From a virus (taxonomy: Duplodnaviria; Caudoviricetes): 64,000 bases of DNA. This document shows, in pieces, positions 51,957 to 60,819 of this stretch; the first letter of the stretch is position 1, and each line of letters opens with the position of its first letter. The DNA is taken from IMG/VR virus record IMGVR_UViG_3300026085_000093, positions 172,367 to 236,366 of that record; one strand, given 5' to 3'. The position numbers were made by a program, and so were the translations under genes. The notes under the pieces were generated by a model, which ran no database searches, had not been told where the DNA came from, and worked only from the letters and a program-made list of their open reading frames with translations.

Positions 51957-52867
51957 TGGCACATCTATGGCAACCAAATACAAGTTACGATAAAGGTGTA
52001 GTTGTAAAATATGAAGAAGTAGTATATGTATGTAAAGAAGGACATGTGTCTATCAATACATTTGAAAAGAAAAGATGGATTAAACATATTGTAAATGAAC
52101 TTGTACAAAATAGACGTGGAGGTGCTAAACGTTTTACCGCAATAAGTAGTATGGATCATAAGTATTTCAACAAATACGGAAGATACTTTTTAAAAAGTGT
52201 GGTTCATAATCTTAACAAAGGAATACGTTTTGAATTGTATAATGAAGCTTTTCGTCCTAAAGTTAAATCTAGAATCAGATTAAGAGGCTGGGATTTAGGA
52301 GAAGAATATAATAAGTTTCAAGAACGCTGGTGGAATGTAAATAAAAAAGTTGCAACATTTGCAAAAAAAGGGTTTACTATTATTGATGCAATGGAAAACA
52401 TTGACTGTGATAGGCTAATTTGGTTAGATGCAGATTTAATCATTAATGCACCTATACACCCTCAATTGTTAGATTTACTTTCAGATGACAGATATTTAAG
52501 CACTCATTTAGGTGTAGTGCATAATGTAGAAGGTAAAAGTTGGTTTAGTTGCGAAACAGGATTTTTTATTCTTAATAAAAATCATAAACAATTTAACGAT
52601 TTTAAAGAAACATATAAAAATATCTACTACAATGACGATCATAAAGATATCCGCAGATTTTATGATGGAGAAGTTTATGGTAAAACTGTAGAAATAATGA
52701 AAGCCGCAGGAGCAGAAATGCTAGATTTAAATCCTGAACATGTACACAAAACATGTATGCCTAGAAGTGTTCTAGACCCTTATATGAAACATTACAAAGC
52801 AGGATTAAAAGACGAAGTAGACTACGGCGCAATAGCAAGGAAATTAGTACCGGATGGCCCTATTTAA
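51956..52867 (+). CDS. Putative GT-A glycosyltransferase with an N-terminal CBM5/12-like module
   Basis: LWQPNTSYDKGVVVKYEEVVYVCKEGHVS N-terminus; FAKKGF, IWLDADL, CETGFFILN, HYKA. Confidence 0.6.
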   Translation: MAHLWQPNTSYDKGVVVKYEEVVYVCKEGHVSINTFEKKRWIKHIVNELVQNRRGGAKRFTAISSMDHKYFNKYGRYFLKSVVHNLNKGIRFELYNEAFRPKVKSRIRLRGWDLGEEYNKFQERWWNVNKKVATFAKKGFTIIDAMENIDCDRLIWLDADLIINAPIHPQLLDLLSDDRYLSTHLGVVHNVEGKSWFSCETGFFILNKNHKQFNDFKETYKNIYYNDDHKDIRRFYDGEVYGKTVEIMKAAGAEMLDLNPEHVHKTCMPRSVLDPYMKHYKAGLKDEVDYGAIARKLVPDGPI

Positions 52868-53705
52868 TTTATGGACAAATTATGGCGCACTTAACTCTAA
52901 GCCTGTTTTTGATGCCTTTCGTGTTGGTGCTATTGCTAATGGTCATAAGTGTGTCGATAATAGCACTGATGGTATTGACGTCATATGGAGTGTCCTATTC
53001 AATGGCAGGATGGCTCCTAACCAAAAAATCTGGGAAGCAGCAAAAATAAAAAATAAACCCGTTGTTGTTTTAGAAGTTGGCGGTATACAAAGAGGCACAA
53101 CTTGGAAAGTAGGAATAGACGGTATAAACGGAGACGCTTATTTTGGTGAACCAGATAACACTAATCATCGTGCTAGTGCATTCGGAATGGCATTAAACCC
53201 TTGGCGCAAAGACGGCGAATACATTCTTGTATGTGGACAGCATGATAAAAGTCTACAATGGCAAGGCATGCCAAGAATGAGCAATTGGTTCTTAAATACA
53301 TATGACGAAATACGTAAACATACAGATCGTCCAATAATATTTCGTCCACATCCACGCTGTAGGTTAGAACATATTGAACGTGGATTAAAACATGTGATTA
53401 GACAGGAGCCAAGGCACATTTATGGGACATATGATGATTTTGATATGGGGTTTGATAATATATGGGCTACTATTAGTCATAGTAGTAACCCTGGGTGCCA
53501 TTCTATACTTCAAGGTGTCCCTGCTTTTGTTAGTACTTCTTCTCTTGCTTATCCTGTAGCCAACGACATAGACTTTTTACACGATATTGAAAATCCTTTG
53601 ATGCCTGATAGAATACAATGGCGCAACGATTATGCACATACCGAGTACACAATTACTGAAATTACAAACGGATTACCTTTAAAAAACTTGACAAACAAAC
53701 TATAG
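52854..53705 (+). CDS. KpsS/KpsC-like putative sugar transferase
   Basis: ILVCGQ, IIFRPHP, ISHSSNPGCHSILQGVPAF. Confidence 0.55.
   Translation: MALFNLWTNYGALNSKPVFDAFRVGAIANGHKCVDNSTDGIDVIWSVLFNGRMAPNQKIWEAAKIKNKPVVVLEVGGIQRGTTWKVGIDGINGDAYFGEPDNTNHRASAFGMALNPWRKDGEYILVCGQHDKSLQWQGMPRMSNWFLNTYDEIRKHTDRPIIFRPHPRCRLEHIERGLKHVIRQEPRHIYGTYDDFDMGFDNIWATISHSSNPGCHSILQGVPAFVSTSSLAYPVANDIDFLHDIENPLMPDRIQWRNDYAHTEYTITEITNGLPLKNLTNKL
52882..53049 (+). CDS. Candidate overprinted 55-aa membrane peptide (+1 frame)
   Basis: MAHLTLSLFLMPFVLVLLLMVISVSIIALMVLTSYGVSYSMAGWLLTKKSGKQQK; only 3 of 47 host-frame codons end in A here. Confidence 0.45.
   Translation: MAHLTLSLFLMPFVLVLLLMVISVSIIALMVLTSYGVSYSMAGWLLTKKSGKQQK
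53422..53559 (+). CDS. Candidate overprinted 45-aa membrane peptide (+1 frame)
   Basis: MGHMMILIWGLIIYGLLLVIVVTLGAILYFKVSLLLLVLLLLLIL; AGGAG and AAGG upstream; 5 of 46 host-frame codons end in A. Confidence 0.45.
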   Translation: MGHMMILIWGLIIYGLLLVIVVTLGAILYFKVSLLLLVLLLLLIL

Positions 53706-53715
53706 ATGTTATATT
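53688..53715 (+). promoter_or_regulatory. Sigma70-type promoter
   Basis: TTGACA-16 nt-TATATT with TG extension; ATG follows 6 nt later. Confidence 0.65.
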
Positions 53716-53721
53716 AATAAC

Positions 53722-58929: not shown

Positions 58930-59378
58930 ATTTATTTAAGGAACTTATTCCTGCTATCGATATGGGCATCAAAGAACTATATGATGCTGCTGGAGAAGAT
59001 GGCAAGAAAGATATTAAACTTGACTTGTGGAATCTTAATCGTTATATTAGCAGTGTTAAAGGCAGTTATGAAAAGCAAGCACTAGCAGTTTTCAAAGTTA
59101 ATGAATACTATAACAAAAACTGGAATGTATTAGGCGGCACTAATCACGTAAAACTGCAATGGCAACTTTTGTGTGTGGCTGGCAAAACAGGAAAGAAAGA
59201 GTTTCATCCTTGGATTGGATTGAAAAAGAAAAAGGATGACAGTAGCAAGGCAGTAAAAATGCTATCGCAAATATATCCTGAAATGAAGATGGACGAGGTA
59301 GAATTACTTGCTAGAATATCTACAAAAAAAGAACTCAAACAATTGGCTGAAGAACATGGCGTTGAATACAAACCCTAA
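58911..59378 (+). CDS. Possible clamp-loader small subunit (T4 gp62-like)
   Basis: LNRYISS, QWQLL, KKEFHPWI, YPEMK pattern and size resemble gp62; low similarity. Confidence 0.45.
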   Translation: MANKELDLFKELIPAIDMGIKELYDAAGEDGKKDIKLDLWNLNRYISSVKGSYEKQALAVFKVNEYYNKNWNVLGGTNHVKLQWQLLCVAGKTGKKEFHPWIGLKKKKDDSSKAVKMLSQIYPEMKMDEVELLARISTKKELKQLAEEHGVEYKP

Positions 59379-60054
59379 GCCATATGTTTGTGATTACTGT
59401 AACACAGGCTATACTAGAGAGAAAACTTTATTGGCTCATATGTGCGAGCCAAAAAGACGTTGGCTACAAAAAGATGAAAAAAGAGTAACACTTGGGTTTT
59501 ATGCGTTTCAAAGATTTTATAAATTAAGTGCAGGACATAAAAATGAAAAAACATATGAAGACTTTGTTAAATCATCCTTCTACAATGCCTTTGTTAAGTT
59601 TGGTAGTTTTGTTAATAATGTGCGTCCTCTGTATCCTGACAAGTACATTGATTACGTGGTAACTAGTAATGTCAAACTTGATCATTGGTGTAGAGAAGAA
59701 ATGTATGAAAAATATGCATTAGAATTTATTCTCAAAGAAGATGCAATTACAGCATTAGAACGTAGTGTAAAAACTATGATGGAATGGGCAGCCGAAAATG
59801 AGCCTGCACCATGGAATCATTATTTTCAACACGTAAGTTTAAACAGAGCAGTATGGCAAATTAAAGATGGTAAGATAAGTCCTTGGTTATTACTTAATTG
59901 TAAAAGCGGTAAAGAGATGCTAAGTAAATTTAACGATGAACAGTTAGATATGGTATATCATGTTATCAATCCAGAACATTGGGCAATGCGTTTTAAACGT
60001 AAACCTCAAGATGTACAATTAGCAAAAGATGTTGCTAAAGAAAGCAGTTTATGA
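59356..60054 (+). CDS. Zinc-finger protein (C-x2-C-x12-H-x-C); start reassigned to ATG 59356
   Basis: YVCDYCNTGYTREKTLLAHMCE. Confidence 0.65.
   Translation: MALNTNPKPYVCDYCNTGYTREKTLLAHMCEPKRRWLQKDEKRVTLGFYAFQRFYKLSAGHKNEKTYEDFVKSSFYNAFVKFGSFVNNVRPLYPDKYIDYVVTSNVKLDHWCREEMYEKYALEFILKEDAITALERSVKTMMEWAAENEPAPWNHYFQHVSLNRAVWQIKDGKISPWLLLNCKSGKEMLSKFNDEQLDMVYHVINPEHWAMRFKRKPQDVQLAKDVAKESSL
59543..59662 (+). CDS. Candidate overprinted 39-aa single-TM peptide (+1 frame)
   Basis: MKKHMKTLLNHPSTMPLLSLVVLLIMCVLCILTSTLITW; AGGA 7 nt before ATG. Confidence 0.4.
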   Translation: MKKHMKTLLNHPSTMPLLSLVVLLIMCVLCILTSTLITW

Positions 60055-60269
60055 ATTTTAGAAAATTACAAGATGATGTGCAAGTTTACGAACTTGACGA
60101 ACCTGTGGAACTGGTAGTAAAAACACGAGCACCAGCAAAGTGGTTATTGATTGACAGAGAAACAGGAGAACAGTATATTGGGGCTACACCTAAGGAAGGC
60201 GAAAAGCATTGGAATCGTGTTCCTGAAAGTGAAATGTGGAGATACGCAATGGAGCGTGAAGATGCCTGA
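60051..60269 (+). CDS. Hypothetical protein
   Basis: Coupled ORF. Confidence 0.65.
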   Translation: MNFRKLQDDVQVYELDEPVELVVKTRAPAKWLLIDRETGEQYIGATPKEGEKHWNRVPESEMWRYAMEREDA

Positions 60270-60819
60270 TATTGATATTGACTTTGCTAACAGAGATGTT
60301 GTATTAAGTAAAATACAACATCGTGTTGCAAAACTAGAAACAGGTAAAAAACATAACACCGGAATATATGTTACAGAGTGTCCACATAATCCTGTGGATA
60401 ATCTTTCGACAATTGATTATAAAACTGCCGAAGATAGAGGATACTTCAAACTTGATTTTTTGAATGTTTCAATATATAAAGATATACAAGACGAAGCACA
60501 TCTTATTTCACTTATGGAGAAAGAACCGCTATGGGAATTGTTTACTCATCCAGAATTCGTAGACCAATTATTTCATTTGAACGGGCATGGGACGGTAGTG
60601 AAGACACTTTGCCCTACTTCCGTGGAGCAATTAGCTGCGGTCCTTGCTATCATCCGACCAGCCAAGAGACATTTGATTGGGAAGACATGGCCGGAGATTA
60701 TGAAGGAAGTTTGGACGATACCGGAGAACGGTGAGTACTACTTTAAGAAAGCACATTCGGTGTCCTACGCAATGGCTGTTGTAGTACACGCTAATTTATT
60801 ATGTGAACAATTAAGTTAA
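60262..60819 (+). CDS. dnaE: Miniature DNA polymerase III alpha (family C) catalytic fragment, 185 aa
   Basis: PDIDIDF, KHNTGIYV, FKLDFL, SVEQLAAVLAIIRP and FKKAHSVSYA are colinear with DnaE motifs; GGAG Shine-Dalgarno. Confidence 0.75.
   Translation: MPDIDIDFANRDVVLSKIQHRVAKLETGKKHNTGIYVTECPHNPVDNLSTIDYKTAEDRGYFKLDFLNVSIYKDIQDEAHLISLMEKEPLWELFTHPEFVDQLFHLNGHGTVVKTLCPTSVEQLAAVLAIIRPAKRHLIGKTWPEIMKEVWTIPENGEYYFKKAHSVSYAMAVVVHANLLCEQLS
60531..60734 (+). CDS. Candidate overprinted 67-aa acidic protein (-1 frame of mini-dnaE)
   Basis: GGAG 11 nt upstream; the overlapped host segment is about 48% GC with many G-ending codons. Confidence 0.35.
   Translation: MGIVYSSRIRRPIISFERAWDGSEDTLPYFRGAISCGPCYHPTSQETFDWEDMAGDYEGSLDDTGER

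Follow-up and report, generated by a model that had tools for sequence, protein, structure and literature searches.

Genes nested within other genes are a textbook trait of tiny phages and are usually attributed to lack of space. Double-stranded DNA phages also provide an example: lambda Rz1, a small envelope-targeted protein, is embedded in Rz in the +1 frame, and is a secreted lipoprotein, with a lipobox, that acts together with Rz. The lysis gene E of phiX174 lies in the +1 frame within the scaffold gene D, whose T-rich third codon positions become the Leu-rich membrane domain of E (PMC8227390). The region considered here, positions 52854-60819 of a 64-kb window (64,000 nucleotides; positions 172,367 to 236,366 of IMG/VR record IMGVR_UViG_3300026085_000093), is a run of consecutive + strand genes of a jumbo phage; the window is the terminal part of a linear 236-kb metagenomic viral record that is estimated to be 66% complete. 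A preliminary description of this sequence had listed six open reading frames (ORFs) in these 8 kb, starting at 52882, 53422, 54997, 56101, 57979 and 59543, as a cluster of concealed genes for small membrane proteins. All six are present, each offset by 1 inside a longer host ORF and each hydrophobic (grand average of hydropathy 0.70-2.53). Comparison with relatives suggests that they are probably a mixture: three chance ORFs, and three overprinted nested genes that are maintained by selection in this clade of jumbo phages.

The best supported of the three lies in kdsA, which encodes a protein of the Kdo-8-phosphate synthase family (57513-58286, + strand; Pfam DAHP_synth_1, 171.5 bits, with a full-length alignment to bacterial kdsA). 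The nested +1 ORF, designated kdsA-ov, runs on the same strand from a TTG at 57979 to 58233, specifying 84 amino acids here, and its conservation among relatives argues that it is very probably a selected coding frame. Like phiX174 E in D, it is entirely enclosed by an older gene and occupies the +1 frame of that gene, has its second positions supplied by the T-rich third positions of the host, which would yield Leu-rich membrane-spanning sequence, and specifies a small orphan product limited to one clade. It differs in that E has one N-terminal membrane helix and blocks cell-wall synthesis, whereas the kdsA ORF has two predicted helices and a TTG start, and in that it resides in a jumbo double-stranded DNA phage of at least 236 kb with no obvious genome-compression pressure. 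The likeness to Rz1 in Rz is that of a small envelope- or membrane-type product encoded wholly within another gene of a double-stranded DNA phage, in the +1 frame; unlike in Rz1, no signal-peptidase II motif was noticed in the ORFs of this region, and their hosts have no evident link to envelope disruption.

Hydrophobicity alone is uninformative about such ORFs because 39% of the codons of this genome end in T (A accounts for another 38% of third positions): the T-rich codon endings would become middle bases of the +1 frame, specifying Leu, Phe, Ile and Val, and the pooled +1 frame of all genes is 42% Leu, Ile, Val, Phe and Met. Transmembrane-like +1 ORFs of at least 30 amino acids number 82 genome-wide, against 74 +/- 6 in synonymous shuffles, so that there is no excess and the caveat entered in the preliminary description, that T-ending codons by themselves generate hydrophobic +1 frames, is borne out. 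The 8-kb region holds 7 such ORFs, against 2.0 +/- 1.2 in shuffles (P = 0.001, for a window picked post hoc), and ties as the densest 8-kb window of the 236-kb record; the word cluster is nevertheless doubtful, since a second sampled region, considered below, adds between one and three candidates of weaker support. The local dip in A-ending codons that had been advanced as the signature of selection does not stand on its own either: in a single-genome window scan it stays within the chance extreme (z = -3.4 for kdsA; null minimum about -3.6), and it is partly circular, because an open hydrophobic +1 frame cannot hold A at position 3 of the host codon. Signal and chance are separable only by comparison with relatives. 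The composition of the +1 frame, the match of the genome-wide ORF count to shuffles and the insignificance of the single-genome dip are what favor regarding all six ORFs, the one in kdsA included, as compositional accidents that are open by chance or through shared ancestry, and three of the candidates behave exactly so.

The comparison rests on 80 related viral contigs, retrieved with 6-kb flanks by a search with the helicase of the region, from which codon alignments were built for 11 host genes (7-79 sequences each; 28-78 relatives for the hosts of candidate ORFs). Stops in each alternative frame of each relative were counted against shuffles of that relative's own synonymous codons, at two levels: across the whole gene, and only inside the segment or window in question. 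A scan of the relatives only, in 30-codon windows and five alternative frames of the 11 genes (7,672 windows), is well calibrated, with a median ratio of observed to expected stops of 1.00. Its lowest outliers are the kdsA +1 window at 57960-58049 (0 stops against 69.9 expected, ratio 0.00), the helicase +1 window at 56097-56186 (ratio 0.25) and a +1 window at 52941-53030 of a gene for a 283-amino acid protein (ratio 0.43); the other outliers are antisense shadows of these three and one weaker helicase window, and the genes flanking the region contain no window with a ratio below 0.55. A second scan used a KdsA alignment, with 80 sequences fetched of more than 580 reported relatives and 73 distinct phage kdsA genes counted; 80 bacterial kdsA genes served as a comparison set.

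Over 57963-58172, the +1 frame of kdsA in 28 relatives contains 3 stops where about 116 are expected, with normal counts, and hence sharp edges, on either side; when codons are shuffled inside the segment only, 35.6 are still expected. The first 58 codons of kdsA-ov are open in 70 of the 73 distinct phage kdsA genes, against an expectation of 0.39, and hold 6 stops in place of 282; pairwise third-position identity among these genes is only 0.50, which is near saturation. For kdsA, these numbers refute chance and shared ancestry as the reason for an open frame. In a scan with a median of 1.00 no segments but these are conspicuous, and the start and its upstream motif are kept beyond what codon usage accounts for; as an explanation of all six ORFs, accident is very improbable. 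The ORF varies in length from 58 to 84 amino acids among relatives, in classes of 65, 73 and 84; the commonest form, of 65 amino acids, ends at the TAG equivalent to 58174-58176.

The avoidance of stops in the kdsA-ov segment depends on sequence context. Leu, Ile and Val codons of the form NTA (N being any base) have a frequency of 0.01 before a codon starting with A or G, where they would generate TAA or TAG in the +1 frame, and of 0.32 before C or T (p = 2e-17), and NTG is followed by A in 0 of 76 cases. The TTG start is composed of a Phe TTT and the G of the following Gly codon, and that Phe is encoded by TTT in 74 of 74 sequences, as against 58% of Phe codons elsewhere. A Shine-Dalgarno-like GAGGA (57967-57971, + strand) lies 7-8 nucleotides upstream of the TTG and is formed by the codons for Glu, Arg and Gly in the invariant TERG motif of KdsA. 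The Arg codon of this motif is AGA (34), AGG (32) or CGA (8) in all 74 sequences, always preserving GAGG or GGGG; CGT and CGC, which account for 56% of the Arg codons in other parts of these genes, do not occur at this position, and AGG reaches 43% as against 8% elsewhere.

A-ending codons fall steeply between the outside and the inside of the overlap (Ala from 0.62 to 0.07, Leu from 0.68 to 0.15, Arg from 0.45 to 0.06), while Lys, Glu and Gln codons and the two-fold T/C ratio barely shift; they number 14/86 over the whole of kdsA-ov and 6/60 over 57993-58172, where 5/60 had been claimed. Host third positions do carry the signature of selection that had been proposed, at 57979, 52882 and 56101, as an avoidance of A and not as a preference for T, since two-fold T/C codons show no shift to T. 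Patches of A avoidance might arise in other ways, through effects on translation speed or accuracy or on RNA stability or structure, leaving an open +1 frame as a side effect. The patches do lie over the most conserved motifs of their hosts (the active-site region of KdsA, motif V of the helicase), T and C/G both rise as A falls, synonymous diversity is unreduced, and the DNA polymerase gene does contain patches of unusual codon use, which explain its windows of low ratio. However, outside the candidate ORFs A-ending use is flat over classes of conservation (0.46, 0.45, 0.48, 0.44), and it does not depend on host hydropathy, on the next base or on the previous third base; the RNA fold z-score is 0.03, with no Rfam match; and bacterial kdsA has no such patch. 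Nor does a patch of any of these kinds explain why NTA is avoided only before A or G, why NTG never precedes A, why stops remain deficient against within-patch shuffles, or why the TTG is invariant and the Arg codon so restricted. We regard this explanation as unlikely. In the segment of the 80 bacterial kdsA genes that is homologous to the overlap, A-ending codons are not lost (the AT-richer ones have 320, where 290 are expected), which rules out such loss as a general property of kdsA, and the AT-rich bacterial genes have 2-7 stops in the +1 frame there. The kdsA genes of Synechococcus phage S-SCSM2R and of an uncultured 462-kb phage likewise lack a hydrophobic +1 ORF at this place; kdsA-ov is confined to this phage clade.

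A different route into the same frame would be a programmed +1 frameshift near AGT TTT GGA, yielding the N-terminal 155 amino acids of KdsA joined to a membrane hairpin. The absence of an ATG, the invariant TTT, the purine-rich motif upstream, as at prfB-type sites, and a +1 frame that is already open 6 to 17 codons ahead of the TTG would all suit this arrangement. The motif spacing of prfB-type frameshift sites is roughly 3 nucleotides, however, and the 7-8 nucleotides that separate GAGG from TTG are the spacing of initiation; a +1 stop lies just 6 codons upstream in most relatives; two-thirds of a triosephosphate isomerase (TIM) barrel is unlikely to fold; and no slippery or 'hungry' codon pattern is recognized. 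Frameshifting is thus a quite improbable source of the product. That the selected frame is instead antisense, with its codon position 1 pairing with host position 3, is hardly credible: antisense stops are indeed depleted over 57972-58061 (ratio 0.04) and 56121-56210 (ratio 0.41), but they occur at expected rates over 58053-58112 (8/8.2 and 13/13.3), so that this frame is not open across the patch, and its stops are the host codons TTA, CTA and TCA, which are lost as a side effect of avoiding NTA before A or G.

The kdsA-ov peptide has two hydrophobic segments in 73 of 74 sequences, joined by a turn that is slightly basic on average. AlphaFold2, applied to 21 aligned peptides, places helices at residues 3-30 and 35-57 (mean predicted local distance difference test score 74), and the predicted product is a two-helix membrane hairpin. 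The enclosing frames, kdsA and the helicase gene, are genuine older genes, and kdsA is the ancestral frame. On the reading favored here, new +1 frames would have arisen inside such older genes by overprinting and then have been kept by selection. In kdsA, we infer that ribosomes initiate at the internal TTG, following GAGG at the usual spacing, and read about 65 codons in the +1 frame; the product would be inserted in the membrane as two spanning helices with a short, slightly basic turn between them. Selection on that product would have purged the overlapped stretch of kdsA of codons ending in A, a base that would introduce stops or charged residues into the +1 frame, leaving the protein sequence of KdsA intact.

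The second nested frame, h283-ov (52882-53049, + strand; ATG start, 55 amino acids), lies near the 5' end of the 283-amino acid protein gene (52854-53705, + strand), a gene with no Pfam or PHROG match and with 60 relatives at about 45-93% identity. Hydrophobic segments number one or two in its peptide, whose C-terminal tail is basic. An open frame with a start (ATG or, where this is lost, a GTG in the next codon) is found in 30 of the 60 relatives, and no relative is open without a start. Open runs are bimodal, at 3 codons or at 57-67 codons, and most non-bearers stop after 3 codons and have 2-9 stops. Codons for Ala, Gly, Thr, Ser and Pro, which cannot create +1 stops, separate the two groups independently of stop avoidance: inside the segment they end in A at a frequency of 0.19 in ORF-bearers and of 0.43 in the others, and outside it at 0.39-0.41 in both. 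A class of 25 relatives set by low A-ending use of these five amino acids alone has 3 stops where within-segment shuffles predict 23.1, and 24 of its members are open against 9.3 expected. For the reference sequence the preliminary count of 3/47 A-ending codons is to be replaced by 11/57 over 52882-53049, with none in the 20 codons at 52914-52973. On a tree of the host protein, the ORF marks one large clade, its presence being clustered. The first 14 nucleotides of the 283-amino acid protein gene are shared with the end of the upstream gene (the upstream stop is at 52865-52867), and since the ATG of h283-ov is 14 nucleotides past that stop, re-initiation after translation of the upstream gene is a possible route to its expression. 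Taken together, these comparisons make h283-ov a well supported and likely nested coding frame in half of the clade. Two allele types exist for the N-terminal part of the host gene (52854-53050), one of which has a 9-codon insert, normal A-ending use and no nested ORF (the two-allele comparison also covers loci L010, L016, L018, L028 and L034); some losses of h283-ov coincide with the insert-bearing allele, and close relatives on the tree can differ in allele type, which suggests recombination rather than point-mutational loss.

The third, hel-ov (56101-56202, + strand), is an ATG-initiated +1 ORF over motif V of a UvsW-like helicase gene, encoding 33 amino acids here, with one hydrophobic segment. 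Over 56103-56207, the +1 frame of 78 relatives has 99 stops against 315 expected, with sharp edges; start and open frame are present together in 46 of them. Openness is associated with presence of the start (p = 0.011), relatives without any ATG being mostly interrupted, and the A-depleted class has 13 stops against 32.1 expected from within-segment shuffles. This is the weakest of the three supported candidates, a plausible nested frame, in about half of the lineages, for which we would give even odds. Another +1 window of the helicase gene, at 55320-55409, was absent from the preliminary list; it has 73 stops against 152.5 expected and is open in 37% of relatives.

Several observations weigh against reading these three frames as selected genes. 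The relatives are not independent samples and the p-values ignore their kinship, so that the latter are overstated. Synonymous diversity, a reduction of which is a classical mark of overlapping genes and the one such mark lacking here, is lower inside none of the overlaps (0.52 inside against 0.46 outside for kdsA, 0.53/0.54 for the 283-amino acid protein gene, 0.51/0.49 for the helicase); only codon composition changes. TTG is the only start on which kdsA-ov can rely. Upstream AGGA, GAGG or AAGG does precede five of the six ORFs, at 5-14 nucleotides, much as had been stated, but no ribosome-binding motif lies upstream of the 52882 ATG, and the AAGGA upstream of hel-ov (56091-56095) is not conserved in relatives. 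On the host-protein tree h283-ov has been lost or replaced several times. The length of hel-ov ranges from 30 to 91 amino acids across relatives, and a clear hydrophobic segment is missing in 7 of its 47 intact versions. Finally, patches of local codon use exist in this genome, so that whole-gene ratios of 0.3-0.5 are not proof in themselves. As to the unreduced diversity, pairwise identity over the same columns is 0.38 for the kdsA-ov peptide and 0.72 for KdsA, and the two other nested peptides compare with their hosts as 0.42 to 0.61 and 0.44 to 0.84; because the peptide diverges faster than KdsA and synonymous diversity is unreduced, selection appears to act on openness and on the absence of charged residues, and not on particular residues. 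Faster divergence than that of the host is usual in overlapping genes of de novo origin, and a constraint of openness and hydrophobicity without a constraint on residues would fit a small membrane-acting accessory peptide.

The remaining three ORFs, all on the + strand, are chance products that are not conserved. The ORF at 53422-53559 (45 amino acids) keeps its start in 7 of 60 relatives (9.1 expected) and is open in 10 of 60, with 2.95 stops per relative against 2.67 expected and NTA equally frequent before A/G and before C/T (0.50/0.50); the reported A-ending counts are roughly borne out here, at 5/47 for the ORF and 48/123 (39%) for the stretch between the two ORFs of the 283-amino acid protein gene. 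The ORF at 54997-55227 (76 amino acids) is open in none of 78 relatives; 2-3 stops are present even where the host is 95% identical, and the observed/expected ratio is 0.85. The ORF at 59543-59662 (39 amino acids) keeps its ATG in 0 of 48 relatives and is open in 5 of 48, with a ratio of 0.75 and no context effect (0.38/0.39). These three are by-products of T-ending codons. Conservation of starts and stops among homologs had been set beforehand as the test capable of refuting the whole proposal: it is strong at 57979, extends to about half of the lineages at 52882 and 56101, and fails at 53422, 54997 and 59543. That all six ORFs, and more, are functional genes could appeal to the regional excess of 7 over 2.0, but with three of them lacking a conserved start, accumulating stops at neutral rates in relatives and, in one case, interrupted at 95% host identity, it is highly improbable. 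Five further +1 ORFs of at least 30 amino acids in the region (in kdsB, a gene for a 155-amino acid protein, phrog_11058 and a polymerase fragment) have ratios of 0.83-0.94 and are likewise not conserved.

The nested peptides match no Pfam or PHROG family above threshold, have no Atlas relative, and find no match among 5.8 billion predicted proteins (46-147 amino acid range). They appear to be new examples of overprinted viral genes, outside any known protein family. In size (58-84 amino acids) and in its two hydrophobic helices, the kdsA ORF is like the class II holins, or pinholins, such as S21 of phage 21; unlike them, it has no charged C-terminal tail and no match to a holin family above threshold, the best among curated holin families being Phage_holin_3_6 (E = 0.12; 12.8 bits against a cut-off of 28.4). 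The last 12 residues carry a net charge of +0.1 in the kdsA ORF, +0.5 in the helicase ORF and +1.6 in the 52882 ORF, the last being the only holin-like value here. Among the genes at 49.4-63.4 kb that have Pfam or PHROG matches (several genes match no family), none matches a lysis family, and the nameable neighbors of the nested ORFs are replication and sugar-nucleotide genes. The suggestion that these are holins thus finds no backing, and nothing was found in support of the antiholin, exclusion and anti-defense functions that had also been offered.

A second region, around the DNA polymerase gene (3,137 codons), was scanned in 80 further contigs. Whole-gene shuffles single out about 15 windows with a ratio of 0.5 or less, in several frames; most of these, especially in the DNA polymerase gene, vanish with within-window shuffles (ratios 0.77-1.00), and three survive. 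One, L084:546-692 (45545-45691 of contig G000, outside the window), is a 48-amino acid hydrophobic +1 ORF with a GTG start in a gene for a 349-amino acid protein (L084:308-1357): within-window shuffles predict 21.8 stops in 21 relatives and 7 are found, start and open frame are retained in 13 of 21, and NTA has a frequency of 0.26 before A/G as against 0.48 before C/T, which gives moderate support to a nested ORF. The others, also on contig G000, are an antisense frame, on the opposite strand, over codons 173-203 of the 243-amino acid protein gene that starts at 41240 (15 stops against 47.5) and a +1 frame over codons 411-441 of the gene that starts at 41968 (22 stops against 44.2, the reference genome itself having a stop). 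Whole-gene A-ending use on contig G000 varies beyond chance (standard deviation of z, 1.58), and is lowest, outside the window, in genes for a CobS-like ATPase, a phrog_1314 protein, DNA polymerase, an exonuclease, the clamp loader and QueE; coordinates of low-A-ending genes on that contig are 57963-59051, 59162-60490, 35443-38142, 54583-55566, 10504-11436 and 49182-50075. Because it is replication and CobS-like genes that have low A-ending use, and structural genes do not, the pattern yields no explanation in terms of codons of highly expressed genes.

The region has no match among deposited phages by megablast; the nearest cultured relatives are the jumbo phages Atu_ph07, PA5oct and the Rak2-like phages, whose UvsW-like helicases are about 50-55% identical to the one encoded here. 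Following the 283-amino acid protein gene on the + strand are a gene for a 403-amino acid protein of no named family, the gene of the UvsW-like superfamily-2 DNA helicase (54933-56396; Pfam ResIII, DEAD and Helicase_C; phrog_16), and, between this and kdsA, genes for a phrog_11279 protein and a cupin (56873-57259) and an 86-amino acid ORF. The kdsB gene (58255-58929, + strand) overlaps kdsA by 32 nucleotides and is followed on the same strand by two further families without a named function and by a DNA-polymerase-like fragment. The latter, a 222-amino acid ORF at 60151-60819, matches the C-terminal part only of DNA-polymerase families (phrog_11778; positions 773-809 of 1190 of phrog_405) and is fully covered in 6 of 35 relatives; a complete family-B-like polymerase is encoded elsewhere in the genome. 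A primase-like Toprim protein is encoded at 62426-63424. The gene upstream of the 283-amino acid protein gene (51941-52867) has a CBM_5_12 module, a weak glucosyltransferase-24 match and a DXD-like motif; the sugar-related genes at 51941-52867, 56873-57259 and 57513-58929 suggest that the phage makes or modifies Kdo-containing glycans. The 64-kb window contains no tRNA or tmRNA genes, and promoter and terminator scans gave chance levels only.

The windows that survive in the second region imply that the cluster may belong to a wider phenomenon. About 21 kb of coding sequence was tested, with three cases of good or moderate support and a further one to three that are weaker. It is conceivable, if rather doubtful, that nested +1 genes for tiny membrane proteins have arisen from T-rich third positions again and again in this clade of uncultured jumbo phages and form a layer throughout the genome. 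If so, there would be dozens of nested genes per genome, all of them missed by gene callers, and overprinting would be a routine source of new accessory proteins that act on membranes, even where a phage genome is very large and space is not short. Counting stops against synonymous shuffles, both gene-wide and within the segment, is an inexpensive check, and is what separates the supported cases from the far commoner chance ORFs. The kdsA case, in an auxiliary metabolic gene of a phage whose genome exceeds 236 kb, provides one of the cleanest comparative signals of a nested gene that could be wished for, and supports overprinting as a route to new genes and not as a device of genome compression. 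AT-rich phage genomes would be primed to yield membrane peptides from the +1 frame, as nested genes of a kind that standard annotation misses.

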